From Deltaproteobacteria bacterium (GTDB lineage: Bacteria; Bdellovibrionota; UBA1018; UBA923), in the NCBI GenBank assembly GCA_016186905.1, contig JACPKS010000044.1, forward strand, positions 3,456-67,455: a DNA stretch of 64,000 nt. Reading direction: 5' to 3'. Below, in pieces: positions 3,634-51,858 of this stretch. How positions within the stretch are numbered: the stretch's first letter is position 1; each line of letters begins with the position of its first letter. A program made the translations under genes and the position numbers. Under the pieces are notes generated by a model that was not told the origin of the DNA, did no database searches, and saw nothing but the letters and a program-made list of their open reading frames with translations.

Positions 3634-5013
3634 GTGCGTCTTTTCCCCGCCATCCTTTTTTTCGCGGTTTCGCTCTTCGCCGCAGGCGACCCCGCTTACG
3701 TCGCGCGCGGAAAAGAAGTCGAGGGCTACTACCGCCAATACACCGCGCGGTTCGGAAAGGTGTTCGACGATCTCAAAAGCGCGCTCAAACAGCACGCGCC
3801 CGAGCTTGCCGGCCGCCTCAAAGTGCTGCCGCCGGCGCCCGTGAAACAGGGCTATCAGGTTCTTCCGAAAATCACCGAGGATCCCGCGCTGACCGTCAGC
3901 CTCGTGCCCGAAACACCCAAGCCACCCTCGTCGGTGCCTTACAGCTGGAAGCGCTCGCGCATGTTCATCGACAAGGAAATCCCGCGCATCGAGGAACAAG
4001 AAGAGAAGCTGCACGTCCTTTCAAGGCTCGGACCGCGGGAACGCAAGAACGTGCTCGAACGGATGGTCGAGGAATATCCGATTCTTGAAGACAACCAGCG
4101 CCTGATCGACCACCACATCCAGTACAATCGGTTCTGGCAGAAATCGATCCACGACGACCGCGCGCGCTTTGACCGGCTGACCCTGCTTCACGACGCGGTC
4201 GTCGAGCGCGAGGAGCTTCTGGCCCGCGAAAAACTAAACGGCTCCAATCCCGTGACGAGCGGACGCATCCGCGAGCTCAGCGCGCAGATCCGGGCCGAAG
4301 GCATCGAAAAACTCAAACTCCCGGGCTTCGCGCGCATGCGCCATCCGAAAAAGAATCTCTGGATTCTCGAGATCCCGGTTTTCACCGACATCCGCGACGA
4401 CGCGTTCATCCGGCGATTCAAAACTGAAGTCGAGCGCATCTGGCATTACCGCGAGAAGGGAGGCATCGCGCGACACGCGATGCAAAGCGCGGCGCCGAAT
4501 CCGCCCGAATTCCAGATACGACTCGAAATCAAAAAAATAGACGCGCGACGGCTCTATCCCAAGACGAAACCCGCCCCGAAGCCGGGCGACGAGATCGACG
4601 TCGAGTTTCACGCCGGGCTCTTTCCGAAAAACGGAGCGCTGCTCACGACGGGTGCTAACTCAACGTATGCGATCCCGAACCGCTACGTGGCGCTCGGACC
4701 GCAAGATCTTTCCTCGCGCACGGCCGCGCACGAATTCGGGCACGTGATCGGATTCATCGACGGGTATTTCCGCGGTTATCGCGACCGCGGCGACGAGGGT
4801 TACGAGGTGCTCGAGATCGTGCCCGACGCGACCGACATCATGAACAACCCCGTCACGGGAACGGTGAAGCTCGAGCACTTCGAGAAAATTCTGGAATCGC
4901 GAAGCAGGCGTTCGGCCGGTGTCTCGAGTTTTTTGGAGGCGTTGCAAGCTCGGCAGGCCGGCACGACGTTTCCGCGCGTGCTCGTGCCCCCGCGCGCGAC
5001 GGGCACAATGTGA
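3634..5013 (+). CDS. Secreted HExxH zinc-metalloprotease-like protein
   Basis: N-terminal signal peptide and an AAHEFGHVIGFIDGY zincin-like motif. Its C-terminal ~70 codons overlap a convergent HNH gene. Confidence 0.55.
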   Translation: MRLFPAILFFAVSLFAAGDPAYVARGKEVEGYYRQYTARFGKVFDDLKSALKQHAPELAGRLKVLPPAPVKQGYQVLPKITEDPALTVSLVPETPKPPSSVPYSWKRSRMFIDKEIPRIEEQEEKLHVLSRLGPRERKNVLERMVEEYPILEDNQRLIDHHIQYNRFWQKSIHDDRARFDRLTLLHDAVVEREELLAREKLNGSNPVTSGRIRELSAQIRAEGIEKLKLPGFARMRHPKKNLWILEIPVFTDIRDDAFIRRFKTEVERIWHYREKGGIARHAMQSAAPNPPEFQIRLEIKKIDARRLYPKTKPAPKPGDEIDVEFHAGLFPKNGALLTTGANSTYAIPNRYVALGPQDLSSRTAAHEFGHVIGFIDGYFRGYRDRGDEGYEVLEIVPDATDIMNNPVTGTVKLEHFEKILESRSRRSAGVSSFLEALQARQAGTTFPRVLVPPRATGTM

Positions 5014-5177
5014 TCCATTGTCAGCTCCGCCGCTTTGAATGCTTTCTGGCAGTAATGGCAGACCCCCGCGGCGAGTCTTGCCTGCCACCAGCCGGACTTG
5101 CGCAGCTTGCGCGCGCGCTCGCGCTCTCGCGCGACGCGCTTGGGATCGGCTTCGAGGTGATACCACTGCCGCGGCAT
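4800..5177 (-). CDS. Small HNH endonuclease
   Basis: CHYCQK...MDHIVPVARGG...NVVPACRACNASK matches the HNH/Zn-finger nuclease motif. The conserved core lies about 4901-5177. Confidence 0.5.
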   Translation of the reverse strand: MPRQWYHLEADPKRVARERERARKLRKSGWWQARLAAGVCHYCQKAFKAAELTMDHIVPVARGGTSTRGNVVPACRACNASKKLETPAERLLRDSRIFSKCSSFTVPVTGLFMMSVASGTISSTS

Positions 5178-5248: not shown

Positions 5249-5420
5249 ACTTTACAGGTGTACAGTATTTAGACGCAGTGCTGTGTATAATTTTTACATC
5301 TGGACAGGCGACATTCACCCTGACAAGTCCCTATCTTATTGGTTTTACATAATTTTTACTATAAATCCCGCCGCTTGCGCGGCGTGTTTCGCTTCGCGTG
5401 TGCTGGCACCGGCATTGCAA
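5249..5420 (+). promoter_or_regulatory. Conserved ~170-bp leader element, copy 1, ending in a sigma-54 promoter (TGGCAC-N5-TTGCA)
   Basis: About 80% identical to 19788-19958. Contains an AT-rich block, a GCCGC-TTGC-GCGGC hairpin, and TGGCACCGGCATTGCA at about 5404-5419, roughly 85 nt upstream of the lipoprotein ATG. Confidence 0.55.
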
Positions 5421-5504
5421 CTCCCCTAGTCATAGCCTGGATGGCATTTGAAGAGAGAACCCCGGGCCTGAGAAACCCGGATAAAGGGAAAAAGGAGAGA
5501 GAGT

Positions 5505-6190
5505 ATGAAATTCAATTCGAAACACACGGCCATGATCATGGTCCTTCCGGTGGCGGTCCTTTTGGCAAGCTGCGGGAAGAAAACAGCGGCACCGGAAACA
5601 CCGGCACGAGCAACAGCTGCAACCACCCGATCGTGTCGTACACGACGCCGTTCACCTACAGCCTTTCCGGCAACGGCAGCACGGGGAAGTCCACTCCGAG
5701 CGGCGTCATCCACGCCGACCAGGACCTTCGCGTGCAGGTCGTTCCCGGCTCGGCGATCGTGAACTCGACCGGCAGCGGCACCAAGCAGTACACCAAGATG
5801 GGCGTGACGGTGACCCTCCTGAAGAACGGCTCGGAAGTTCCGGGCGCTTCAGTGACGATCCCCGGCGGAACGAGTGCCACGGGCTATCGCAACGGGCTTG
5901 CGGTCGGTGCGAAGTCGCAAATCGTGGACTTCAGCACGTATCTCAGCTCGGGCAACAACACGTATTCGGTCAAGGTCTCGAACATCATGAGCGACTACAC
6001 CTGCAAGACGTACTGCACCGAGAACAACCCGCAGTACTGGCTCTGGAACGGGTACTACTACTACCCGGACTGGCAGATGATCAACGCGTGCAAAGCTCTT
6101 CAGTGCGACGTCGGCTCGGTCGACAACGTCGCGGGCTGGTCGATGACCGTGCAAGTCGAAACCGACAACACGCCCTGCCTCACTCAGTGA
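5505..6190 (+). CDS. Gly/Ser/Thr-rich secreted lipoprotein with an apparent +1/-1 frameshift near 5575-5625
   Basis: The lipoprotein signal peptide with lipobox LLASC is in the 5505 frame. The plausible mature protein continues in the 5339 frame to 6190. The 5505 frame turns into Arg-rich junk and stops at 5762. Confidence 0.45.
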
Positions 6191-16320: not shown

Positions 16321-18867
16321 ATGGCAAACACCGACACACCGCTGATGCGGCAGTACCTTGAAGTCAAATCCCGCATTCCCGACGCCCTGCTCTTTTTTCG
16401 CCTCGGCGACTTCTACGAACTTTTTTTCGAGGATGCGCGCACGGCCGCGCGCGAACTCGAGATCACGCTCACCTCGCGCAACAAGAACGATCCCGACCCC
16501 ACCCCGATGTGCGGAGTGCCGTTTCACTCGGCGGCAGGTTACATCAATCGCCTCGTCGCAAGCGGCCACAAGGTCGCCATCTGCGAACAGCTTGAAAATC
16601 CAGCCGAAAAAAATGGGCCAGAAAAAGGGGCAGAGACCAAGAGCCTCGTCAAGCGCGACATCGTGCGGGTCGTTTCCCCCGGTACGCAGCTCGACCCCGA
16701 TGCGCTCAACGCCAAAGCGCCGAACTGCACGCATGCGGCATGTTCATCCGCGGGCGGAAAGATTCTCTGGGCCACCTGCGATTTCACGACCGGAAAATTC
16801 CGGTTCGGGTCGGCGGCGGATCTTGAGAGCTGGCTTGCCACGCTGCAATCGCAGGGCATCGCGGAGCTTCTCTTTCCGGAAAACGACGCCGGCTCAAAGC
16901 TTTTGGATGAAATCCGCGCGCGCGCCCCGCGTGCGTTCGCGCAGACCGTCCCCGAGTTTTACTTCGACTCCGAATACGCGGCCAGCCGCATGCGCGAGCA
17001 GTTCGCCGCGCAGTCGCTTGCCGCCGTTCATCCCGAGCTCTCCGAATGCGTGCGCCCCGCCGGCGCGCTCGTGAAATATTTCCAGGAATCGCAGCGCGCG
17101 CCGCGAATTCCATCCGTGAATCGAATCGAAGCATGGGGCTGTAATGGCCGCATGGAGCTCGACCCGGCCACCGTGCGCGCACTCGAGCTTCTGCCCCGGC
17201 GCGAGCCAGGCGCAGGCGCGGCCGCGCGCGACGCAAGCCTTCTGACGTGGATCGACCGCACGAAAACCGCGATGGGCGGACGCCTGCTTCGCGACTGGAT
17301 TCTTCGCCCTCTCACTGACGTCGAGAAAATCGACGCGCGGCTCGGCGAGGTCGCCTCAATACTGGAGGCCGGTACGGAGGCTTCCGGCAAAAACCTTCTC
17401 GCTCGGCTCACGCAGCCGCTTTCGGAAATTTACGATCTCGAACGGCTATCCTCGCGAATCTCGCTTGGGATGGCGGGCGCGCGCGACCTCAGAGCCACTG
17501 CTGGTTCGATTCTCATGGCGCGCGAGCTCTGCGAGCGCCTCGGCTCGCTTGAGCTCGGATCGCTCTTAAAGGGCGCGCTTGATTCCAAGCTCGTGGCGCT
17601 CTCGGAAGAAACCCTGCGGGCCACCGTCGAAAATCCGCCGCTTGCCGTGCGCGAGGGCGGGATGTTCGCGCGCGGGTTTCACGCCGATCTCGACGAGCTC
17701 ATCGGCCTCACCACGAACGGCGAAGCGTGGCTTGCCGAATACGAAGCGGCCGAGCGCAAAAGCACCGCGATCAACTCGCTCAAGGTGCGCTTTAACCGCG
17801 TGTTCGGTTATTACATCGAGATCACGAAGGCCAACCTCGCGTCGGTTCCCGCGCACTACGTCCGCAAACAAACCACCGTCGGCGGCGAACGCTTCATCAC
17901 CGAGGAGCTCAAGCGTTTCGAGGAAAAGATCCTCACCGCCGAGAAAAAGCGCAACGACCTCGAGTACGCGCTTTTCCGCGAGTTCTGTGCCCGCTTCACG
18001 GCGAAAGCCGCGGCGGTTTCCGAGCTCGCGCGCCAGGTCGCGCACGTCGACATCATCGCGGGGTTCGCTGCCCTTGCCTCTCGCGAGGGCTACGTAAGGC
18101 CCGCGATCGACGATGGAACGCTGCTCGAAATCGCCCACGGACGCCATCCCACCGTGGCGGCGTTCATGGAAGGCTTCGTTCCCAATTCGATCGCGCTCGG
18201 CGGAAGCGCGGGTTTTTTTCTCATCACCGGCCCCAACATGGGCGGTAAGAGCACCGTCATGCGCCAGACCGCACTCATCACGCTCCTCGCGCAGATCGGC
18301 TGCTTCGTGCCGGCCAGGTCCGCGCGCATCGGGGTGGTCGACCGGATTTTCACGCGCATCGGCGCAAGCGACAACATCGCCGAGGGCTCCTCGACGTTCA
18401 TGGTGGAAATGAGCGAGATGAGCTTCATCCTGCGCAACGCGACGGCTAGGAGCCTCATCCTGCTCGATGAAATCGGCCGCGGCACCAGCACGTTCGACGG
18501 AATGAGCCTGGCAATGGCGCTGGCCTCCGACATCGCCGGGCGCATCGGGGCGCGCACGCTCTTCGCCACGCACTACCACGAGCTCACCGCGCTCGCCGAT
18601 CGTTATCCCCGCGTGTCCAACCACCGCATGGCGGTTTCAGTCGGCGAGGACCGCGCGGGACACGCCATCGTCCGCTTTCTCTATCGCCTCGAACCAGGAG
18701 CCGCCGAGCGGTCGTACGGAATCCTCGTCGCACGCCTTGCCGGCTTGCCGGAGCATGTGCTCAAACACGCGCAGCAGATACTCGAGACGATCGAACACAC
18801 CGCCCGCGACCGAAACGGCAGCGCCCACCGCGAAACACCTCAACTCGATCTCTTCGGCAATGCATAA
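16321..18867 (+). CDS. mutS: DNA mismatch repair protein MutS
   Basis: Mismatch-binding N-terminus (FFRLGDFYELF), Walker A GPNMGGKST, and an HTH C-terminus. Confidence 0.95.
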   Translation: MANTDTPLMRQYLEVKSRIPDALLFFRLGDFYELFFEDARTAARELEITLTSRNKNDPDPTPMCGVPFHSAAGYINRLVASGHKVAICEQLENPAEKNGPEKGAETKSLVKRDIVRVVSPGTQLDPDALNAKAPNCTHAACSSAGGKILWATCDFTTGKFRFGSAADLESWLATLQSQGIAELLFPENDAGSKLLDEIRARAPRAFAQTVPEFYFDSEYAASRMREQFAAQSLAAVHPELSECVRPAGALVKYFQESQRAPRIPSVNRIEAWGCNGRMELDPATVRALELLPRREPGAGAAARDASLLTWIDRTKTAMGGRLLRDWILRPLTDVEKIDARLGEVASILEAGTEASGKNLLARLTQPLSEIYDLERLSSRISLGMAGARDLRATAGSILMARELCERLGSLELGSLLKGALDSKLVALSEETLRATVENPPLAVREGGMFARGFHADLDELIGLTTNGEAWLAEYEAAERKSTAINSLKVRFNRVFGYYIEITKANLASVPAHYVRKQTTVGGERFITEELKRFEEKILTAEKKRNDLEYALFREFCARFTAKAAAVSELARQVAHVDIIAGFAALASREGYVRPAIDDGTLLEIAHGRHPTVAAFMEGFVPNSIALGGSAGFFLITGPNMGGKSTVMRQTALITLLAQIGCFVPARSARIGVVDRIFTRIGASDNIAEGSSTFMVEMSEMSFILRNATARSLILLDEIGRGTSTFDGMSLAMALASDIAGRIGARTLFATHYHELTALADRYPRVSNHRMAVSVGEDRAGHAIVRFLYRLEPGAAERSYGILVARLAGLPEHVLKHAQQILETIEHTARDRNGSAHRETPQLDLFGNA

Positions 18868-19741
18868 CAAAAAGGTGCCGACCTACTTTTCGTGGTGTGG
18901 CGCTTCACGAAAAGTAGGTCGGCACCTTTTCGTATTCTGCGCATATTTTCTTCTTTTCGCACACGTTACGCGCGCGAGCCCTCTTGTCGTTCTCGACCCC
19001 GGCCACGGCGGAAGCGACACGGGCGCGATCCATCGGCTGGGCGCCCAAACGGTCGCGGAAAAAGACATCACGCTGGCCCTGGCGCGCAAAGCGGCCACAG
19101 CGCTCAGAGCGCGCGGCATCCAGGCGGTTTTGACTCGCGACCATGATTTCGTCGTCGCGCTCGATCATCGCGCGGCGATCGCGAACTCGGCCGCACGCCA
19201 TGCCGACGCGGTTCTTCTTTCGATCCACGTCAACTCGGCGCGCGACCCGTACAGCAGCGGCATCGAAACCTATGTTTTCAATGCCACGAACAACGAAGCC
19301 TCGCGCCGCCTCTCCGAAATTGAAAACGGCAGCCACCGCGTCGAACCCAAAGGCATCGTAAACCTCATCCTCTCGGATCTTTCGGCCACGGCGAACTACG
19401 CCGAATCCGTCTCGATGGCATGCGGCGTACACTCCCAGCTCGTTTCGGGGATGAGTACTGCCGGAAACACGATCAGAGACCGAGGCGTGCGCCCCGGGCT
19501 TTTCTACGTGCTCATGGGCGCGCGCGTTCCCGCCGTATTGATCGAGGCCGGATTCGCGAGTAACCCGCGCGAGCTCGCCAACCTTGTCAATCCCGTTTAC
19601 CAGGAACGCTTCGCCCGTGCGCTTGCCGAAGGCATCGCAAACTGGCGTTGGATCAGGGGCAGACCCTTAGCCCTTTCCGGCATTCGAAAAAAAGGGCCTA
19701 AACTCGCGCGGGCCCGAGACGCCGCGTCGCTTTGCCGCTGA
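18860..19741 (+). CDS. N-acetylmuramoyl-L-alanine amidase (AmiC-like)
   Basis: Amidase_3 signature VVLDPGHGGSDTGA...SIHVNS...E. The ATG overlaps the mutS stop, and the predicted signal peptide is encoded across the REP-like hairpin. Confidence 0.7.
   Translation: MHNKKVPTYFSWCGASRKVGRHLFVFCAYFLLFAHVTRASPLVVLDPGHGGSDTGAIHRLGAQTVAEKDITLALARKAATALRARGIQAVLTRDHDFVVALDHRAAIANSAARHADAVLLSIHVNSARDPYSSGIETYVFNATNNEASRRLSEIENGSHRVEPKGIVNLILSDLSATANYAESVSMACGVHSQLVSGMSTAGNTIRDRGVRPGLFYVLMGARVPAVLIEAGFASNPRELANLVNPVYQERFARALAEGIANWRWIRGRPLALSGIRKKGPKLARARDAASLCR
18870..18930. terminator. REP-like long hairpin (23-bp perfect stem, 15-nt loop, T-tract), copy 1
   Basis: AAAAGGTGCCGACCTACTTTTCG ... CGAAAAGTAGGTCGGCACCTTTT immediately after the mutS stop. 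Same family as 29196-29254. Confidence 0.6.
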
Positions 19742-19787: not shown

Positions 19788-19958
19788 CTTTACAGGCGTA
19801 CAGTATTTAGACAATTCGCTGTATATAATCTTTACAGTCGGATAGGCGGCATTCACCCTGACAAGTTCCTATCTTATTGGTTTTATATAATTTTTTCTAT
19901 AAATCCCGCCGCTTACGCGGCGTGTGCTGCGATGCGCGTGCTGGCACCGCCATTGCAC
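19788..19958 (+). promoter_or_regulatory. Conserved ~170-bp leader element, copy 2, ending in a sigma-54 promoter (TGGCAC-N5-TTGCA)
   Basis: About 80% identical to 5249-5420. TGGCACCGCCATTGCA at about 19942-19957, roughly 45 nt upstream of the lipoprotein ATG at 20001, with RBS GAGGAGAGAG. Confidence 0.55.
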
Positions 19959-20000
19959 TACTATCTTGCAAGTACAACTCTATTGAGGAGAGAGATCACT

Positions 20001-20633
20001 ATGAAACGGTTCAAACACTCTGCACTTATGGCGACGCTAATCGGCATCATGGTCGTGGCCAGCGGCTGCGGAAGCAAAAGTTCAAACCCGGCTCCCGGCG
20101 CTCCGGGCGCGCCAGGCTACTACGGCGGAACGGTGACCCCACTGCCCGGCGGAGCGGTCGCAATCGCGTTCAGCGGCTCAAACGTTTACAACAGCGGTCA
20201 GCGCATCACCGGCGGGCAAGTCACCGGAAGCGGCCAGTGCTACACGCAAGGCTGCTACTGCGGATACTTCTCGGCGAGCGGCAACGTCTGCTGGCAGTTT
20301 GCCAACCCCTACACGCAGGGAACTGGCTCCATCGCGGTCGGCGGCAACAGCATGCCGGTCGGACAGCCCGGAACGATCCAGGCGGTTTCGAAGTATGAGC
20401 CGAACTCGGGCCTCACACTCGTCGTGACCCCGGGCAGCGATGCTCTGCACTCGAACGTCTCCGGCCTGATCACGCTCTCGCCGCAGTACATGCAGATGAA
20501 CTTCCCCGGCGGATTGCCCGGAATCGTCGGTGTCGCCTTCGACATCGTCTACTCGGGCGGCCAAGGCTTCGGCGGCGTGCTCTTCTACACGTCGACCGGA
20601 ACCCCCCCGCACGGCGGGTTCTTGAGAATCTGA
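20001..20633 (+). CDS. Gly-rich, Cys-containing secreted lipoprotein
   Basis: Signal peptide MKRFKHSALMATLIGIMVVASGC with a lipobox, then a G/S/T/Y-rich mature part. The long ORF from 19932 and the ORF 19877..20398 are artefacts of the conserved leader. Confidence 0.6.
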   Translation: MKRFKHSALMATLIGIMVVASGCGSKSSNPAPGAPGAPGYYGGTVTPLPGGAVAIAFSGSNVYNSGQRITGGQVTGSGQCYTQGCYCGYFSASGNVCWQFANPYTQGTGSIAVGGNSMPVGQPGTIQAVSKYEPNSGLTLVVTPGSDALHSNVSGLITLSPQYMQMNFPGGLPGIVGVAFDIVYSGGQGFGGVLFYTSTGTPPHGGFLRI

Positions 20634-27385: not shown

Positions 27386-27403
27386 ATGTTTAGTCAAGGA
27401 GTA

Positions 27404-36605: not shown

Positions 36606-37967
36606 ATTCTCAGGCAAGAATTCGACCGAATATGCAGGCACCTGCACCAGATCGAATCTGAGCCTGGTTCCGGGATCAATCTTATAAGCAACTCTGTTTA
36701 TGTCGTGCTCTTGAAAGTTGCTGAGATTAAAATTCACCGCGAGATCGGTCTTATGCGTGCGCACGAACTGGTAGAGTGATTTAAGCGACCCGATTTTTTT
36801 AGATTTTACCTCGATCGGCATGATTTCCCCTTTGTGCTGGATCACGAAATCAATCTCGGCTGCGCCCCGCTTCTTGTTGTTCAACCAGAAGTACAGCTCA
36901 GGTTCCATGTCCGGGCCTTGAAAATAGGCCAAATGTTGCGCGATGAACTGCTCGCTGACCTTTCCCTTAAACGACTCCATGCGATCGTTCAAAATATCGT
37001 CGAAGTCGATTCCGGAAAGGCATGTCATGAGGCCCACATCCAGGAAATAAAGTTTGAAAACGCTTTCGTCCCTTTGAGCCTTGATCGGAAGCTCCGTGGC
37101 ATTCGTATGATTCGCGCGATGCACGACTCTTGCCTGGCATAAAAGCTCGATCGCTTTTTTTACGTCATTCGTCTTGTCGTCCCTGGAAATCTCGGAATAT
37201 TTGGCGAGGTTTCCGGCGCACATCGCGGCATATTCCATGACTTTCGGAAGACGCGCGGTTTGCGCCCTGGTCGCGTATTTTGAAAAATCGGCCTTGTACG
37301 TGTCGATGATTCCCCGCTGGATCCTTCTCGTCTCCCGCAAGTCACTTGTTTCAAGGTAAGTTTTGATCGCGGCCGGCATCCCGCCGACGAAAAGATACGT
37401 TTTATAATATTGCACAGCTTTCGCGTGCAAGGCTTCTGAAGGATTTTTTTTGTGCCCGACCTCGATCCACTCGATGAGTTTTTCCTCTTTGACGGCTTGC
37501 AGGTATTCAACAAAAGTCATGGGTCCCAGATGATGGAATTCGACTCTTCCGACCGGCATCGAGAATTCCTGATCGTTCAGGGTGAACTCCAGAAGCGATC
37601 CCGCTGCGATCACCGCGATATCGTGATGCTTCTCGTAGAAATACCTAAGGCAGCTCACGGCCTTCGGCTGCTCTTGAATTTCATCGATAAAAAGAAGCGT
37701 GTTCGGTTTACCGAGGGAAATTCCGGACAGCGCCTCGATTTCCTTGATGGCTAGACCGATGTCGAAAAAATTTGTCCCAAACTTTTCAAACTGACCGATT
37801 TTCGTCAGTTCAAGATTCAGCTCGCAAAGCTCAAGGCCATTGGCCGCGCAAAAATTTCTGACCAGAGTCGATTTTCCAACCTGTCTTGCCCCCCTTAGAA
37901 TGAGTGGCTTTCTATTATTTTTTGTCCGAAACCATTTGAGAAGGTCTTCCTCAGCAGCTCGCCTCAT
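36591..37967 (-). CDS. AAA+ ATPase, COG1373/DUF4143 family
   Basis: Walker A GARQVGKST, Walker B LLFIDEIQ, and a C-terminal DUF4143-like region. GC is lower than the surroundings. Confidence 0.75.
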   Translation of the reverse strand: MRRAAEEDLLKWFRTKNNRKPLILRGARQVGKSTLVRNFCAANGLELCELNLELTKIGQFEKFGTNFFDIGLAIKEIEALSGISLGKPNTLLFIDEIQEQPKAVSCLRYFYEKHHDIAVIAAGSLLEFTLNDQEFSMPVGRVEFHHLGPMTFVEYLQAVKEEKLIEWIEVGHKKNPSEALHAKAVQYYKTYLFVGGMPAAIKTYLETSDLRETRRIQRGIIDTYKADFSKYATRAQTARLPKVMEYAAMCAGNLAKYSEISRDDKTNDVKKAIELLCQARVVHRANHTNATELPIKAQRDESVFKLYFLDVGLMTCLSGIDFDDILNDRMESFKGKVSEQFIAQHLAYFQGPDMEPELYFWLNNKKRGAAEIDFVIQHKGEIMPIEVKSKKIGSLKSLYQFVRTHKTDLAVNFNLSNFQEHDINRVAYKIDPGTRLRFDLVQVPAYSVEFLPENSLQP

Positions 37968-38136: not shown

Positions 38137-38400
38137 TCATTTCTGATAACGCAAGGCGCTCAGCCGCTTGGCTTTCGCGACGAGTTTCTTGAGCGGAAGT
38201 GGGGGCTCGTTTTTCAAATGCGCCATGAGCTGAACGAGAAGCTCCTTTTGAAATTTCAAGATTTCCGCGTGAACGACTCTCGCGCTTTTGCCGGCGTCGG
38301 TGGAAAAATCACAGGCCGATACCGACGGGCTCGTGCCGGCAATACTCAGCATGAGCGTCTACGCGGTGATGACCGTGGCGCGGGAATCAAGGGGATCCGG
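38137..38400 (-). pseudogene. Decayed duplicate of the abiEii 3' end
   Basis: About 85-90% nucleotide identity to 31930-32170, beginning exactly at the abiEii stop. Only a 71-aa ORF remains. Confidence 0.6.
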
Positions 38401-38442: not shown

Positions 38443-41400
38443 TTAATTGGCTCTCTTCTTCCGCAACATCTTCGCGCAACCGGCGTATTTCGTCTGCAGC
38501 AGCCGGGCGAACTCGTCCACGCCGTCGATGTAGCCGTTCAGATTCTCGGTCCATTTTACAAAATCGCGTATCAACGGGACCCCCGCCTTCGCGCGAAGAA
38601 GCCGCAATTCATCGGCGCTGAAATGATCCGCTCCTCCCATGTTGAGGAGCTCGACATATGCGCGCGCAAGAACCGGCGTGAGGCGGGCCGTCTTGCCGCG
38701 ATCCATGTCGAGCAGAAGACGGTGCAGCGATTTTTCAAGAATCTCCGGGCTGTCAACCTGAGGTTTACGCGCAAGCTTGACGAGTTTCAAAATCCCCTCT
38801 TCGAGCTCCTCGGCGCTCCACTCAGCGCTTATGAGCTCGTCGATGTATTCTTGGCCGTCCCATTTGTTATGTTTCTTGTCGTGAATGACCAGCCAGTCGA
38901 ACACGACCTTTTTCTCTTCGGGACTCAATCTGGTGGCGAGTCGAGTGATATCAGTTTCGTAGCTGTCGAACACTTGAGAAGCGTTTTGGCCAAACTCTTC
39001 AAGCGCCTTGCGCAAAAGCGCGAATTGGGCGGCTTCGTAATCGTGTAATATCGCGCGGAGGATTCTTCCGCGATCGGTGTCCGAGCCGACCTTCGCCGCG
39101 GCTTCGATGAGCTTGTCCAGGACGATTGATGCAATGGGACTTGCCGCGATCGCTTCTCGCTTTTGCTGGACGAAACTCGTGAAGGCCTCACGTTTCCCGC
39201 TCCTGGCAAGCTCGTCAATAAAAAGAATCAGCCGGGTGGAGTCGTTTAGATCAACGAGCGGCAAATCGTGCTTCATGAACACCCACCTGCTCATGCGCAG
39301 GAGCTTCGCGCGCGTTTCCCCGCCGACTTCATCGACGAGCTCGAGGATGGCGCGGTCAATGCTCGTAAGCGCATCCTGATGGCTGCTGAAGTCGAGAAGG
39401 CGCGACACAAACGAAGACCGGCTTCCGCGAAGATCCTCGCGAATCCTTGTCTTGAGCTCATCCTTAAGAGCCGCAGACGCTTCATCTCTGAAAAACAAAT
39501 CATCCGGTTTGATCGGGCCGAGCTGGCCCTTTTGCGCGAGCTGATATGCTTGACGCACATGATTAAACTCCGCGAGCCCGCGGGAAAACTGGTCCGTCGA
39601 GACATCTCCGTACTTAAGATAAAGCTCGGCGGTTTTAGGGTTGATGACAAGCATCTTCGCGACGAGATGCTCAGCGCCATGCGGACTCAACTTTCCCGCC
39701 TGGATTTTTTTCTCGAGCTCAGGCGCGAACTCGTCGGCGAACGGGAGAGCGATCCAGAACATGAAGCAGTCATCCGCATTGGCCGTTCCGAGCATTCCGC
39801 TGAAAATCAATTCCTTAAGTTTCGCCTTGGGTACGAATCGCGCATAAAAAGGGGCAAACGAGTCGATCGGGCTATAAGGGTGGTGCGCGTATTTCGAGAG
39901 CGGGTTTTTCGAGAGCAAGAAACTAGTTGAAACGGTTTCTGAAAGCCACGTGACGAATTTTTCGTCCCAGAACACGGCTCCGAGCTCCGTGCGGAATAAT
40001 GCATCCAGCTCATGCGGGTTGATCCATTTTCCCCGCTCCATCGCGTCGATGAGCCGCGCGCGAAGCCGGGCCTTTTCTTTATCGCTTGCCGCGAGGATCT
40101 TCGCGATCGCGGTCTTGCGAAATTCCGGATAAATAGCCCCTCCACCGTGAAACTCGATTCCACCCAGGAAAAGCAGGTCGAACCATTGCACGGCGTTCAT
40201 GCGCTCCTGAATGAATGGGAACTCAAGAAGCACGCTGACCATCCCATCGGCCGGCACGCCTTTGCTCATGTGCGTGAGTTTGTCGATGAACGCGTCGGCA
40301 AACTCGGCCTGATTCTCGGGATTCACGGCCTTTTTCGAAAACCGCTTGAGCAGTTCGTGTGCGAGTTTGTTTTCTTCATCGGAGCTGGACTTCGTGAAGA
40401 CGATCGCCCTGATTTTTTCGGCGGTGCTGAGCTCAAGGTGTTTGAGTGGATGAGGAAGCGCCAGCCATTCCTCGAGCAGGAATTGCGAGGGCTTGCGCTT
40501 GTGAAGCTCCTTTCGCACGATCTCGGAGATCGCGCGATCCTCGTCGTCGGAGAGGTGCGCGACCCTGCTCGTGATGCGCCGCTTGAGTTTCTCGAGAATC
40601 CCCCGGTCGCCGTCGTCGAGAAGCCTGCCGCCCTGAAGGAGCGCGAAGAACTCGGCAGGACCGATGTTCAGGCTCTCGGGGATGACTTCAAGAGCGTTGC
40701 GATTGAGAAAAATCAGAAAGTCCGTGCCTGCCACAATGAAATCCGCGCCCTCAAGCGCATCGGGTGCGACCTTGTAGCGGATGGTGAGGCCCGTGCCGGC
40801 GGCGCCTTGTCTGCCGATCCTCGTGTAATGGCCGTCGCCGAAACTCGCGGCCTCGCCCGCGTAGCCGTCGCGCGAGATCAGCACGTTGGGCCTTCCCGTC
40901 GTGTCGCGCGTGATCGATTCGTAGGCGATGAAGTCGGAAGTCTCGTGCGCGACGGCGAACTCATCCCACGGAATGTCCATTTTTTTTGCGACGTCGCGGG
41001 CCGTTCTCGCTTTTACGCCTTTCGGAAGTTTCGAACGATCGCCGACACGAAACGAGCGCAGCGGCTCTTTTCCCATCCACCAGGCCACCGATCCTTCGTC
41101 GGTGATGTCGCCGATCTTGGCGAGCTTCCGGCGCAGGCCAAGCGTGTCGAGCGTGTCCATCGCGTACTCGATGTTCACGGCGTGTTTGACGAGCTTGGCT
41201 GCATTGCCGCGGTCGGCGAGCCAGCCGCGCGCCCAGCCGCTCCAGGAAGGCGGATCGCGAACGGGATCGAAAGCGCCGATGATTCCGCGGATGGGGACGA
41301 GGTCTTCGTCGCGCGTCTTGAGCTCGTATTGAAAAGCCTTCGTGAGGTAGCGGATCACCGAGAAAATCGGCGGATTATCGCCCGCCTTGAAGCGCGACGT

Positions 41401-42132
41401 CGTTTCGTGGCGTTTTGAGAAGTAATAATGCAATTTCCCTTCGGCGGCGTCGCGCAGGAAGAACGGGTCCTTCTGGTTTTTCCAATCCCGCAGATCCCGC
41501 ACGATCGCTTCGCCGCGCGGAGAATCGGTTAGCTCGATCATTCCGGTCGAGTTCGAATCGGTGTGCTGATCCAAAAAATCCGGATTATTGAGCAGCGCCT
41601 GCTTTACTCCCCGGTCCTGCCTGAGCAGGCGCACTTCCCATTCCGACTTCGAACCTTGCAAATGCGCGAGTTTGGATTTGATCAGAGTTTCCAGCTGCTC
41701 GGCTTGCTCCGGCGTGCCGTCGACGACAAGATCGGCGTCCTGGGTTGAGCGGTAGATATTCGTGAAGTCGTAATCAAAGCGCGACTCGATGAAGCGCTTG
41801 TCGCCGCCTTTGCGCAGCAGATCCCATTTCACGTAGTGCGCGTATCCGGCGGCCGTGCCGCCGAAGAGCCAGACGCGCAGACCGAGCTCGCGCGCGGCTT
41901 CGCGGATGATCTTGAATTCGAACACGCGGTCGCGGTTTTTCGCGATTTCGGCCGCGAGCCGCCCGGTCTCGACGGGCGCGTAGCCGGTCTGGGCCGAAGG
42001 ATTTTTCGCATGCTCAGGAGCTTTCGCGTGCGCTGGCGCTTTCGCGTGCGCGGTGGCGATGATCGCGGCGACGAAAAGAGCAAACCCTGCCGCAAACAGC
42101 CTCTTTTTAGCCTGAAAAGAATGGACGATCAT
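38443..42132 (-). CDS. Giant secreted paralog of the 33252-35858 protein, with a divergent or degenerate ART-like core
   Basis: Signal peptide MIVHSFQAKKRLFAAGFALFVAAIIATAHA. It shares the N-terminal GG..A.GY...DAD-type domain and an alpha-helical C-terminus. No intact HG[ST]/E motif was found by eye. Confidence 0.45.
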   Translation of the reverse strand: MIVHSFQAKKRLFAAGFALFVAAIIATAHAKAPAHAKAPEHAKNPSAQTGYAPVETGRLAAEIAKNRDRVFEFKIIREAARELGLRVWLFGGTAAGYAHYVKWDLLRKGGDKRFIESRFDYDFTNIYRSTQDADLVVDGTPEQAEQLETLIKSKLAHLQGSKSEWEVRLLRQDRGVKQALLNNPDFLDQHTDSNSTGMIELTDSPRGEAIVRDLRDWKNQKDPFFLRDAAEGKLHYYFSKRHETTSRFKAGDNPPIFSVIRYLTKAFQYELKTRDEDLVPIRGIIGAFDPVRDPPSWSGWARGWLADRGNAAKLVKHAVNIEYAMDTLDTLGLRRKLAKIGDITDEGSVAWWMGKEPLRSFRVGDRSKLPKGVKARTARDVAKKMDIPWDEFAVAHETSDFIAYESITRDTTGRPNVLISRDGYAGEAASFGDGHYTRIGRQGAAGTGLTIRYKVAPDALEGADFIVAGTDFLIFLNRNALEVIPESLNIGPAEFFALLQGGRLLDDGDRGILEKLKRRITSRVAHLSDDEDRAISEIVRKELHKRKPSQFLLEEWLALPHPLKHLELSTAEKIRAIVFTKSSSDEENKLAHELLKRFSKKAVNPENQAEFADAFIDKLTHMSKGVPADGMVSVLLEFPFIQERMNAVQWFDLLFLGGIEFHGGGAIYPEFRKTAIAKILAASDKEKARLRARLIDAMERGKWINPHELDALFRTELGAVFWDEKFVTWLSETVSTSFLLSKNPLSKYAHHPYSPIDSFAPFYARFVPKAKLKELIFSGMLGTANADDCFMFWIALPFADEFAPELEKKIQAGKLSPHGAEHLVAKMLVINPKTAELYLKYGDVSTDQFSRGLAEFNHVRQAYQLAQKGQLGPIKPDDLFFRDEASAALKDELKTRIREDLRGSRSSFVSRLLDFSSHQDALTSIDRAILELVDEVGGETRAKLLRMSRWVFMKHDLPLVDLNDSTRLILFIDELARSGKREAFTSFVQQKREAIAASPIASIVLDKLIEAAAKVGSDTDRGRILRAILHDYEAAQFALLRKALEEFGQNASQVFDSYETDITRLATRLSPEEKKVVFDWLVIHDKKHNKWDGQEYIDELISAEWSAEELEEGILKLVKLARKPQVDSPEILEKSLHRLLLDMDRGKTARLTPVLARAYVELLNMGGADHFSADELRLLRAKAGVPLIRDFVKWTENLNGYIDGVDEFARLLQTKYAGCAKMLRKKRAN

Positions 42133-42287
42133 GCCTTCTGTATCGTCTTTGCCGGCGCCGATCAGGATGGGCAAAAGATGATCAGCAAGAGTTTCTTTGC
42201 GCGCAAACGGGCGTTGCCCGGTTGAACCAATTCAGGGGTTATCGCGACACCGCGCGACACCGGCGGTCACTCGTTCGGCTGGTAGCT

Positions 42288-43442
42288 TCAGTTCGGAAAA
42301 CTCTTAAGCAGCGCGGGCAGGCCCTCGAGCCCAGTGTAATATAAGTCCCTCATTCTCCTCGCGGTTTTCTTTCGCGCTCCATTTTCATCCGAGGCCACGA
42401 CAATGACCGGTGATTGCGGGTACATATCCCGGAACACCGAAACGGAATTTTCGGAGAATTGACGGGACTTCCATTTGCATTCGATGGCGATGGGCCGCGC
42501 TCCAGCCATGCCCTGAACGACAAAATCCACCTCATGCGCGGCCTTATCCCTCCAAAAATGTATTTTTTCCGGCGGTACGAGCGAAAGCATTTCATTCAAG
42601 ACGAAGTGCTCCCACAGAGGCCCGCAGTCGCTTTCAGTCAGACTCGTGCGGCCATGAAAATAATTGATGAACCCGGTATCGAAAAAATAGACTTTGGGAG
42701 CCGCGACGATTTCACGCGCGGGATTCGAGGAGAACGGACGCAGGATCACCGCGGCATGCGCGATTTCCAGAGCTCCGAGGTAATTCATGACTGTCTGGCG
42801 GGACAGCTCGCATGGAGCGGTCAGCGACTGGGCCTCGAAAAGCCCTCCGCTCTGCAACGCCAGCAGCTCCATGAGCTTCATGAAGCCGTACCTTTTTTCG
42901 ATCTTGAAGACTTCTTGGATGTCTTTGGCCCAAAAGCCATCGATCCAATCACGATAGGCCGCCTCATCGAAAGCGGGCGACAGCAGAAACGGCGGCAAAC
43001 CGCCCTTAAGCAGCCGCTCACGAAGGTTTCCATGCCCGAGCGCCGACAGGTCAGCGGCATTGCATGGCGTAAGTTTTACGACCCGCTTGCGGTCCGTGAG
43101 CGTGTCGCTGAACTTCGCGGTGGCAGCCAGGGTCGATGACCCAGTGGCGACGATTTTCAAGCGCGGGTAGTGATCCGCGGCGATTTTCAGCACTGCCGAC
43201 GGATTCGCGATCTTGTGGACCTCGTCGAGCACGATCAAGCGCCCATGACGGCTGTCAAAAAATTCCTCCGGATCGTCGAGAAGCCGTTGGATGCGCGGGA
43301 GCTCGCAATCAAAGTAGTCCACGTCTCCGAGCTGGCGGCAGAGGGTGGTCTTACCGGATCTGCGCACCCCCGTGAACCAAACGACGTTTTTTCTCAAAAG
43401 CGCCTGATTGATTCTTTCCAGCCAGAAATCTCTTTTAACCAC
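42288..43442 (-). CDS. AAA+ ATPase, COG1373/DUF4143 family (second copy, diverged)
   Basis: Walker A GVRRSGKTT, Walker B LIVLDEVHK and a DUF4143-like C-terminus. It lies 113 bp upstream of the giant paralog on the same strand. Confidence 0.7.
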   Translation of the reverse strand: MVKRDFWLERINQALLRKNVVWFTGVRRSGKTTLCRQLGDVDYFDCELPRIQRLLDDPEEFFDSRHGRLIVLDEVHKIANPSAVLKIAADHYPRLKIVATGSSTLAATAKFSDTLTDRKRVVKLTPCNAADLSALGHGNLRERLLKGGLPPFLLSPAFDEAAYRDWIDGFWAKDIQEVFKIEKRYGFMKLMELLALQSGGLFEAQSLTAPCELSRQTVMNYLGALEIAHAAVILRPFSSNPAREIVAAPKVYFFDTGFINYFHGRTSLTESDCGPLWEHFVLNEMLSLVPPEKIHFWRDKAAHEVDFVVQGMAGARPIAIECKWKSRQFSENSVSVFRDMYPQSPVIVVASDENGARKKTARRMRDLYYTGLEGLPALLKSFPN

Positions 43443-50078: not shown

Positions 50079-51133
50079 CCTTTGCGCGCCTGCTGCGGTA
50101 GACGTAAAATACCGGTAAAAACATTACGTAGGCGCGTGTGCAGTTCGCGCGCGTCGAGGAAGAGCCACTCCGGATCGACATTGCCTTGAATCGCGAAGCG
50201 GCCTCCGAACTCGGTCAGCACGTCCGCGAGCTTGTGATTCCAATCGATGCCGATCCCTTCGATCGGAAGGTCGGCGAGCATCGACCAATGCGCGGGGCCC
50301 GTCCCCTTCGAGTAATACACCAGCGGCACGCCCGGACAGCGGCTGCGAAACTCCGCAAGCACCGCTTTAAGCGCCGGCAGCGCGTAATCGCGAAACGCTT
50401 CAACGCCAAACTCGCCCGCGCAGGTATCGAGCACCGCTACCGTATCGACACCCGCCTCGGCTTGAAGAGCCATGTTCGCGGCAAGAAGCCCGGTGAGCTT
50501 CGTGCAGAAACCCTTGAAACGCCCGTCGCGAAAACCCGCCCGCGCGGAGGCAAGCTTTCCATGGTGCGAGCCTTCGACGGCGTAGCTGTACAGGGTCAAC
50601 GGTCCGCCGACGAAACCGAGCAAGCCTTTCGACGAATCCAGGCGCTCCCGGATCAGCCGTATCGCCTGGCCCTGAAAATCCAGATCCTTCGCGAGTGCCG
50701 CGCCAAAGCCTAGCTTTTTCAGCGCGCTTGGCGCGTCGAGGTGCCAGTCGAGCTTCGGTCCGGGCTCGTAGCGCAGTCCCATTCCCATTGCCTCGAGAGG
50801 AAAAAGAAGATCCGAAAACAAGATGGCCGCGTCAAACCCGAAATCCTCGACCGGGCCCATCGTCGCCTCGCAAGCGATCTCAGGTCTCTTGCAAAGGTCC
50901 ATGAACGAATGCCGCGCGCGAAGTTTTTGATAGTGAGAATGATAGCGGCCCGCCTGGCGCATGAACCAGACCGGCGGGCGGCCGGCGTTGCGACGCGAAA
51001 GCGCGTCCCGAAAAAGATTCGCTCCGCTAGCGCTCCGCAGGCCGTCCTGGCTCGCTCCGCTAGCGCTCCGCAGGCCGTCCTGGCTCGCTCCGCTGCTCGC
51101 TCCGCTAGCGCTGTTCAGACCGTTCTGGCTCAT
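49985..51133 (-). CDS. hemE: Uroporphyrinogen decarboxylase
   Basis: PVWFMRQAGRY... URO-D signature. The N-terminal extension carries a 33-bp tandem repeat. Confidence 0.85.
   Translation of the reverse strand: MSQNGLNSASGASSGASQDGLRSASGASQDGLRSASGANLFRDALSRRNAGRPPVWFMRQAGRYHSHYQKLRARHSFMDLCKRPEIACEATMGPVEDFGFDAAILFSDLLFPLEAMGMGLRYEPGPKLDWHLDAPSALKKLGFGAALAKDLDFQGQAIRLIRERLDSSKGLLGFVGGPLTLYSYAVEGSHHGKLASARAGFRDGRFKGFCTKLTGLLAANMALQAEAGVDTVAVLDTCAGEFGVEAFRDYALPALKAVLAEFRSRCPGVPLVYYSKGTGPAHWSMLADLPIEGIGIDWNHKLADVLTEFGGRFAIQGNVDPEWLFLDARELHTRLRNVFTGILRLPQQARKGWICGLGHGVLPGTPEENVKLFLKLQREVFT
51021..51120. repeat. 33-bp tandem repeat (two perfect copies plus a partial) at the hemE 5' end
   Basis: gctccgctagcgctccgcaggccgtcctggctc occurs twice, encoding SASGASQDGLR twice in the hemE frame. 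Confidence 0.6.
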
Positions 51134-51858
51134 TTTGCGCCCTCCGCGTCCACCACGAGCTGATAGCCCACGCCACGAATACTGCGGATCACCTGCGGAT
51201 TTTCCACGTCGTACTCGACGATCCGGCGAAGTCTCAGAATGAAATTATCGACCGTGCGCGGGCTCGGAAAATCATCGTCCGACCAGACCTTATCCAGAAT
51301 TTCGTCGCGGCTCACGGCCACGCCCCTTTTCTCATACAGAAGTTTCAGGAGCGCGCATTCTTTGTGGGTCAACGGTTGCATCTCGGTCTTGCCCGCCTGC
51401 CGCACCTCCGCCGCGAAACTCGCGAAGCGCACGGTCGCGCGACCGATCCGCACCGCGCGCTTCGCTGCGGGACCGCTCGAGAGATCTTTCATGCGACGAA
51501 GGATGTTTCGAATCCTCAATAAAAGTTCCTTCACGTGAAAAGGTTTGGTGACATAATCTTCGGCGCCCAGCTCGAGCCCTCGGATGCGGTCTTCGGGGTC
51601 TCCATGGGCGGTGAGAAAAACCGCGGCCGTCGCGGGGCTGCGCTTGCGAAGCACGGCCGCGAGCGCGAACCCCGAACCGTCGGGAAGCCCCACGTCGAGC
51701 AATGCCATGTCGAACGCGCGCGCGGCGATCGCAGCCTCCGCTTCTTTCACCGAGCAAACCCAGGTCACATCGAAGCCCTCTTGTTTGAGACGCTCGTAAA
51801 GCGTTGAGCCGACGTTCCTTTCGTCTTCGACGACGAGGATCGATTCCGCTTCAGACAT
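51130..51858 (-). CDS. OmpR-family response regulator
   Basis: Receiver domain (ILVVEDE...D...K) and a winged-helix C-terminus. Confidence 0.8.
   Translation of the reverse strand: MSEAESILVVEDERNVGSTLYERLKQEGFDVTWVCSVKEAEAAIAARAFDMALLDVGLPDGSGFALAAVLRKRSPATAAVFLTAHGDPEDRIRGLELGAEDYVTKPFHVKELLLRIRNILRRMKDLSSGPAAKRAVRIGRATVRFASFAAEVRQAGKTEMQPLTHKECALLKLLYEKRGVAVSRDEILDKVWSDDDFPSPRTVDNFILRLRRIVEYDVENPQVIRSIRGVGYQLVVDAEGAK

Follow-up and report, generated by a model that had tools for sequence, protein, structure and literature searches.

Reiterated upstream regions that end in a sigma-54 core promoter have a precedent in Rhizobium meliloti, where the nifH (P1) and fixA (P2) promoters reportedly share about 160 bp of upstream sequence, a finding said to go back to Better et al. 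in Cell in 1983. That arrangement consists of two transcription units in one genome, each preceded by a region of about 160-170 bp ending at a sigma-54 core, with a common activator implied, and these reiterated promoters would be the closest known precedent for the case considered here: two small lipoprotein genes, termed LP1 and LP2, in a 64,000-nt stretch of a metagenome-assembled genome (MAG) contig from an uncultured groundwater deltaproteobacterium (genome about 60% G+C). This stretch is called the window; all positions are window coordinates, and promoter positions are relative to the predicted transcription start of LP1 at about 5430. The two unlinked genes lie behind nearly the same 170-bp control region, and we regard that element, with good confidence, as the regulatory DNA of a promoter dependent on sigma-54 (RpoN), found twice and predicted to drive one lipoprotein gene at each place. 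The organism and the genes differ from those of R. meliloti, and a probable recent copying of the central tract between the loci is a feature of the present case.

Among the deltaproteobacteria, the Nla28 network of Myxococcus xanthus is said to have been studied as a regulon of sigma-54 and an enhancer-binding protein (EBP). Sigma-54 promoters in general are characterised by a conserved GG at -24 and TGC at -12, and need an activator that is normally bound upstream, at enhancers usually 70-150 bp or more away, with looping often aided by a bending protein (PMC3844500, PMC4641369). In the Desulfovibrionales the motif reads tGGcacg/tTGCt, and AT-rich palindromic EBP sites have been described for deltaproteobacterial sigma-54/EBP regulons; the sigma-54/EBP regulome of Desulfovibrio vulgaris is like the present case in belonging to a deltaproteobacterial-type genome and in core matches to tGGcacg/tTGCt (PMC4641369). 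With the enhancer-dependent promoters glnAp2/NtrC, nifH/NifA and Pu/XylR with IHF (architecture reviewed in PMC3844500, PMC4641369), the likeness extends to the exact -24/-12 core, to conserved blocks 100-180 bp upstream, to an AT-rich tract lying between, and to retention of the core in orthologues. In contrast to those examples, no activator gene is found in the window, the upstream activating sequence (UAS) is a candidate only, the IHF consensus is not matched, and the targets are small uncharacterised lipoproteins rather than nitrogen, flagellar or stress genes. The promoter element is of an ordinary, already known kind, placed before uncharacterised lipoprotein genes, and the locus presents no new type of system; its less ordinary aspect is the probable exchange of an upstream region between two unrelated genes.

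The shared block and the sigma-54 core within it lie as follows.

5250..5419, + strand: shared block, copy 1, holding the LP1 upstream regulatory region and the predicted sigma-54 core, about -180 to -11
19788..19957, + strand: shared block, copy 2, the same region 5' of LP2, delimited by alignment and blastn
5404..5419, + strand: predicted sigma-54 core of copy 1, TGGCACCGGCATTGCA, with the -24 GG at 5405-5406 and the -12 GC at 5417-5418; predicted start at about 5430
19942..19957, + strand: predicted sigma-54 core of copy 2, TGGCACCGCCATTGCA; predicted start at about 19968

Aligned without gaps over 170 nt, 5250-5419 and 19788-19957 are identical at 145 of 170 positions (85.3%), the 25 mismatches comprising 16 transitions and 9 transversions. 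The initial annotation of this DNA had noted an element of about 170 bp at both loci; the element is real, with the identity higher than the 80% then noted and the coordinates shifted by one base. When the element is searched against the whole window by blastn, only the self-match and the second copy (E=4.5e-51) stand out, the next best match having E=0.23, and no third copy is found in the 64 kb. Copy 1 recurs unchanged in four Logan assemblies from this population (L131, L132, L134 and L135; a further assembly, L133, begins downstream of the block and is not counted), and copy 2 is identical in the Logan contigs L001 and L003. The element has no match in collections of viral contigs, plasmids and phages. 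A search of genome contigs with the pattern GCCGCNNNNGCGGCN{15,30}TGGCACNNNNNTTGC, which is too generic for GC-rich genomes, returned at least 120 unrelated matches, and none among the matches listed holds the element. The one match from a metagenome scan with the LP2 family alignment, L128, was rejected as a false positive.

The identity of the block is indicated by its 3' edge, which falls directly after the TTGCA of the -12 element (5419 and 19957), so that the last 16 nt of both copies are an exact TGGCAC-N5-TTGCA. This exact sequence has only two matches in the 64 kb on both strands, and none in 100 dinucleotide-preserving shuffles; a search of the window allowing up to two mismatches finds nothing comparable at any gene start. 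Both cores are on the coding strand, 85 nt 5' of the start codon in the case of LP1 (ATG 5505) and 43 nt in the case of LP2 (ATG 20001). The core is also present in relatives of the two genes: the syntenic LP2 orthologue (L130) carries an exact core, TGGCACTCCCATTGCA, at the same position as copy 2, an LP2 homologue of 41% identity (L004) carries TGGCACCACCCTTGCA 47 nt upstream of its ATG, and an LP1 homologue of 58% identity from an AT-rich organism (L005) carries TGGCACTGGCATTGCA 65 nt upstream, at a locus where 0.10 core matches with up to one mismatch would be expected. The exact core thereby recurs in five promoters of the LP1 and LP2 gene families. The initial annotation had predicted a sigma-54 promoter without locating it, and the prediction is now given a position, with an exact core in both copies that is kept in three other organisms. 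We infer sigma-54 dependence in vivo, and the start sites, from this core and its placement.

Downstream of the core the two loci have nothing in common. From the end of the block to the Shine-Dalgarno sequence there are 75 nt in copy 1 and 29 nt in copy 2, and the earlier statement that the copies diverge just before the ribosome-binding site is therefore mistaken. The predicted 5' untranslated regions (5'UTRs) are unrelated, except for their purine-rich Shine-Dalgarno sequences. Because the similarity stops right after the -12 element and the 5'UTRs are unrelated, the block would represent a promoter with its upstream DNA, and not a transcript. Mismatches between the copies are distributed 8/9/8 over the codon phases, with no 3-nt periodicity (hand count).

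Within the block, conserved and diverged segments alternate.

5250..5274 (copy 2: 19788-19812), + strand: block A, CTTTACAGG(T/C)GTACAGTATTTAGAC, -180..-156, 24/25 identical (96%)
5275-5279, + strand: spacer between blocks A and B, 5 nt, 0% identity between copies
5280..5298 (copy 2: 19818-19836), + strand: block B, GCTGT(G/A)TATAAT(T/C)TTTACA, -150..-132, 17/19 identical (89%)
5299-5301, + strand: spacer 3' of block B, 3 nt, 0% identity between copies
-128..-43, + strand: long block that includes the AT tract and the GC dyad, 93% identity between copies
5332..5366 (copy 2: 19870-19904), + strand: AT-rich tract, 14% G+C, -98..-64
5369..5384 (copy 2: 19907-19922, loop TTAC), + strand: GC dyad CGCCGC-TTGC-GCGGCG, -61..-46
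5388..5399, + strand: variable spacer from the GC dyad to the core, -42..-31, 7 of 12 positions differing (42% identity)
-30..-11, + strand: core segment, 95% identity between copies

The mismatches are strongly clustered, with 14 of the 25 in runs of three or more, an outcome reached in 0 of 100,000 random placements. The motifs listed by the initial annotation, namely the 5' sequence now termed block A, the AT-rich block and the GC dyad whose sole change between the copies is in the loop, TT(G/A)C, are all present. Block A contains the imperfect dyad TTTACA-GG-TGTACA and is the best candidate for an enhancer, or UAS. Block B reads TGT-N11-ACA, and in copy 2 also CTGTA-N9-TACAG, and is possibly a second activator site; the NifA site is TGT-N10-ACA, so that block B is one base longer. 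Both dyads are weak. The AT tract, with T-tracts at 5343-5346 and 5353-5357 that are about 10 nt apart, is presumed to be a bend or flexible region for looping.

This arrangement is suggestive of the following sequence of events. Sigma-54 RNA polymerase would bind the -24/-12 core at the 3' end of the block and remain there as a closed complex. An ATP-dependent EBP, which would be encoded outside the window, would bind the distal conserved blocks, A and possibly B, contact the polymerase through a DNA loop over the 14%-GC tract (-98..-64), and open the promoter, with predicted transcription starts near 5430 and 19968, some 11 nt past the end of the block. Since the two genes have the same upstream region with identical spacing, LP1 and LP2 should respond to the same activator, and two lipoprotein families that are so far uncharacterised would thereby be tied together in their regulation, in a concrete form that can be tested. 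A dedicated regulon of secreted lipoproteins, as proposed by the initial annotation, would have these two genes as its only visible members. The comparisons given here and below lead us to infer an enhancer block, a function for the AT tract, and a copying of sequence between the loci in one direction or the other.

The AT-rich part could instead be a UP-like element or a sigma-70 promoter, insulated from upstream transcription by the GC hairpin as a terminator, with the sigma-54 match incidental, as the hexamers TATAAT (5286-5291), TTTACA (5293-5298 and 5344-5349) and TATAAA (5360-5365) might indicate. However, no pair of hexamers has a spacing of 16-18 nt, a scan of the + strand finds no such promoter in either copy, and the recurrence of an 11-base sigma-54 consensus, without a mismatch, before five genes of these families cannot be incidental. 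This explanation is accordingly given very little weight.

Nor is it likely, by a similarly wide measure, that the element is transcribed and acts as RNA, whether as a cis-acting leader, the alternative that the initial annotation had offered, or as a small RNA ending at the GC hairpin. In the hairpin the 6-bp GC stem is perfect and the copies differ in the loop only; TGTTTCGCTT comes next in copy 1, where the hairpin scores as terminator-like. The substitutions at 5305, 5311 and 5329 lie within a predicted stem that could still pair, via G-U (partly by inspection). Three compatible transitions would arise by chance about once in 8 cases, however, as an estimate rather than a computed value, and the block lies upstream of the predicted sigma-54 start, with no sigma-70-like promoter found by a + strand scan in either copy. 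The T-run after the hairpin is absent in copy 2, and the hairpin and the central tract are both absent from the orthologue L130. Rfam yields no match at its gathering score (a 26-bit chance match against a threshold of 102 bits), and the fold z-scores, at -0.6 to -1.4, are ordinary. As an intrinsic terminator the hairpin also falls short, being terminator-like in copy 1 only and missing in L130. The leader proposed earlier is thus not upheld, and a sigma-54 control region at the DNA level is preferred.

The history of the block can be read by comparison with L130, the syntenic LP2 orthologue locus (GCA_964405105.1), which has the gene order amidase-LP2-integrase and an LP2 protein of 90% amino acid identity. 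Identity between the window and L130 varies along the locus as follows.

Amidase 3' end: 90% identity
First 15 nt of block A: 14/15 identical
-165..-43: 47-50% identity, which is chance level (shuffled null 46%, p=0.38)
-42..-11: 84% identity
5'UTR: 40/43 identical (93%)
Coding sequence: 89.7% identity, with 82% at third codon positions

After the first 15 nt of block A, the next ~120 nt cannot be aligned to L130. The GC dyad is absent there, with an 8-nt gap at its place in the alignment, and the interval from block A to the core is 146 nt in L130 and 154 nt in the window, or 8 nt shorter. At about -100..-60 the AT-richness is retained in L130 and the sequence is not. Within this genome, then, the LP2 promoter matches the LP1 promoter over the central tract at about 90% identity, yet over the same tract it is unrelated to the promoter of a close orthologue. 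Because orthologue identity in -165..-43 is at chance level and the flanks are at 84-93%, the segment probably passed from one of the two promoters to the other within this lineage, through gene conversion or ectopic recombination, an event that the initial annotation had missed. In the spacer at -42..-31 copy 2 resembles L130 (GCGATGCG) and not copy 1, and the copied tract would therefore end here on its right side. Most simply, the stretch that was copied lay between two pieces of sequence that the LP1 and LP2 promoters had in common beforehand, namely the block A motif to its left and the core region to its right. The high similarity of the two copies would then be largely the outcome of the copy event, and not of long-term conservation. 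As paralogous promoter regions that are far more alike than orthologous ones, the two loci provide a clean example of evidence for exchange of regulatory DNA between loci.

The same comparison has implications for function. The start of block A and the AT-richness both survive in L130, and for this reason they are the best candidates for functional parts, as an activator site and as flexible or bent DNA, respectively; the GC dyad is dispensable in L130. One reading, which we consider improbable, is that only the -24/-12 core is functional and that the tract at -165..-43 holds no enhancer, bend or regulator site and arose neutrally, as a side effect of gene conversion or segmental copying in the recent past. 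It would account for L130 keeping the core, 5'UTR and gene at 84-93% alongside an unalignable tract with no GC dyad, and for the lack of a significant motif common to other sigma-54 promoters of the same gene families. It is difficult to reconcile with the need of sigma-54 promoters for an activator that is normally bound upstream (PMC3844500, PMC4641369), with mismatches that are clustered rather than scattered, and with the retention in L130 of the block A start and of AT-richness at -98..-64.

An equally speculative proposal, to which a comparably low probability is attached, is that the tract of about 125-140 nt (-180/-165..-43), with its candidate enhancer, AT tract and GC dyad, is a portable 'enhancer cassette' that was copied by gene conversion onto existing sigma-54 cores. 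If so, unrelated surface lipoprotein genes would have been recruited into the regulon of one EBP, and more copies would lie elsewhere in the genome before other envelope genes.

The sharp boundaries of the block, its two dispersed copies and the lack of similarity in the flanks could also be taken as signs of a small mobile or repetitive element, similar to a miniature inverted-repeat transposable element (MITE) or a repetitive extragenic palindrome (REP), that carries a promoter and was inserted upstream of two genes. However, there are no terminal inverted repeats, the sole inverted repeat found in copy 1 being the internal GC dyad, no target-site duplication was seen when the flanks were read by eye, there are only two copies in 64 kb, and the element is absent from the plasmid, phage and viral collections. 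The right boundary, in addition, coincides with the functional edge of the promoter. Replacement rather than insertion is indicated, since the L130 interval is a different sequence of nearly the same length (146 versus 154 nt), and of all the explanations weighed here a mobile element is the least credible.

Several observations weigh against an enhancer-dependent sigma-54 promoter copied between the two loci. No rpoN is encoded in the 64-kb window, so that the organism's sigma-54 is an assumption, and no EBP (GAFTGA or Sigma54_activat) is encoded there either. Upstream of L006, another LP1 homologue, the sigma-54 core is missing. A comparison of upstream words with L004 and L005 gives no significant sharing (p=0.08-0.98) and establishes no enhancer motif; the enhancer sites predicted by the initial annotation therefore stand as conserved blocks in the usual range (-180..-100), and not as a defined binding motif. 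As for the IHF-like bend of the same annotation, the region is AT-rich but does not match the IHF consensus: AACCAATAAGATA, on the - strand at 5332-5344, comes closest to WATCAANNNNTTR, with 2 mismatches. L130 manages without the central tract and without the GC dyad, and much of the shared block may not be needed. Finally, the copy event is deduced from a single orthologue, L130, and the L130 lineage may instead have undergone a replacement just as drastic.

Other likenesses seen by eye among the upstream regions, TTTACA[GT]GTG, TTTAGAC, CCCTGAC and TGT-N11-ACA, are not claimed as motifs, as their sharing with L004 and L005 is not significant.

The genes behind the two copies and their predicted 5'UTRs are as follows.

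5430..5504, + strand: LP1 5'UTR (predicted), locus-specific, with AAGAGAGAAC at 5451-5460, a hairpin at 5462-5480 and the Shine-Dalgarno sequence GGAGAGAGAG at 5494-5503
5505..6190, + strand: LP1 lipoprotein gene, with signal peptide MKFNSKHTAMIMVLPVAVLLASCGKK from ATG 5505
19968..20000, + strand: LP2 5'UTR (predicted), with the Shine-Dalgarno sequence GAGGAGAGAGA at 19986-19996
20001..20633, + strand: LP2 lipoprotein gene, intact, 210 aa, starting MKRFKHSALMATLIGIMVVASGCGSK

Both genes encode lipoprotein signal peptides, and neither product has a Pfam match. The possibility that LP1 and LP2 are distant homologues was rejected, as no homology is detected between the mature parts by BLASTP (E=0.38) or by hhalign, which aligns the signal peptide only (probability 17%). 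The initial annotation's description of two unrelated lipoprotein genes is borne out in these respects, with the qualification that the gene behind copy 1 is broken in this assembly.

In the case of LP1, the mature domain is read in the frame of 5339-6190, out of step with the signal peptide; the cause is a deletion of 73 nt at ~5585/5586, seen against five Logan assemblies and lying between short GCGG repeats in the linker-coding region. An intact LP1 of 252 aa is found in these five independent assemblies (L131-L135; P0053), which have adjacent SRR accessions and of which three also carry LP2. The deletion could have come from a collapsed assembly or could be a true strain variant. It is also the reason why the deposited model MBI2605499.1 (HYW49_05395, 'MAG: Deltaproteobacteria bacterium') begins at a spurious ATG at 5441. 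In the case of LP2, the deposited model MBI2605512.1 (201 aa) begins at an internal methionine (MATLIG...), 9 codons late; the 210-aa start, MKRFKHSAL, has a Shine-Dalgarno sequence 5-15 nt upstream and agrees with the gene calls in the orthologue and the Logan contigs. Both gene models, the one with the wrong ATG and the one that starts late, are corrected accordingly.

The LP1 family comprises 46 clusters in 1.84 billion representative proteins. All eight members read are lipoproteins in which a low-complexity linker is combined with a beta domain rich in Cys, and most of the eight end in a motif like VETDxTPCLT. The LP2 family is far smaller, with four proteins found among 5.8 billion clusters. 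AlphaFold models LP1 as beta-rich, with a predicted local distance difference test (pLDDT) of 67, and Foldseek gives this model weak matches only, to beta-sandwich and jelly-roll proteins at a template-modelling (TM) score of about 0.3; the LP2 model, with a pLDDT of 44, is too poor for use.

In the LP1 5'UTR, AAGAGAGAAC is followed by a hairpin with the stem CCGGG/CCCGG, and in L005 (5894-5918) an identical 10-mer is followed by a stem of different sequence, ACCTTA/TAAGGT. The 10-mer and hairpin may be a conserved leader feature specific to LP1, with fold energies in the ordinary range. In the assembly L134 (SRR12113420), 15 nt shortly after the predicted LP1 start (window ~5435-5449) are replaced by an unrelated 49 nt (L134 ~479-527), its promoter block and the remaining 5'UTR being identical to the window, and this difference represents a strain variant or an assembly chimera.

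Divergent from LP1 is a small HNH endonuclease gene at 4800-5177 (- strand), which overlaps the 3' end of the open reading frame (ORF) 3634-5013 and has a predicted sigma-70-like promoter at 5214-5186.

Elsewhere in the window, two paralogous AAA_14/DUF4143 ATPase genes at 36591-37967 and 42288-43442, both on the - strand, flank a 1243-aa ORF (38443-42174) that has no Pfam match. A 210-nt direct repeat, 90% identical, is present at 31938-32147 and 38160-38369, and on the - strand both copies seem, by eye, to encode the start of a protein of ~65 aa (MLSIAGTSPSVSAC...). Three 33-nt units (TCGCTCCGCTAGCGCTCCGCAGGCCGTCCTGGC) lie at 51019-51129 inside ORF 50741-51163, two of them tandem and identical and the third 85% identical, with starts spaced by 33 and 45 nt. 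Finally, a 66-nt element with a long near-perfect hairpin, AAAAGGTGCCGACCTACTTTTCG...CGAAAAGTAGGTCGGCACCTTTT, occurs at 18865-18930 and 29189-29254 with 76% identity, one copy directly after the stop codon of MutS and the other directly after ORF 27386-29191, and looks like a repeated bidirectional terminator or a REP-like palindrome.

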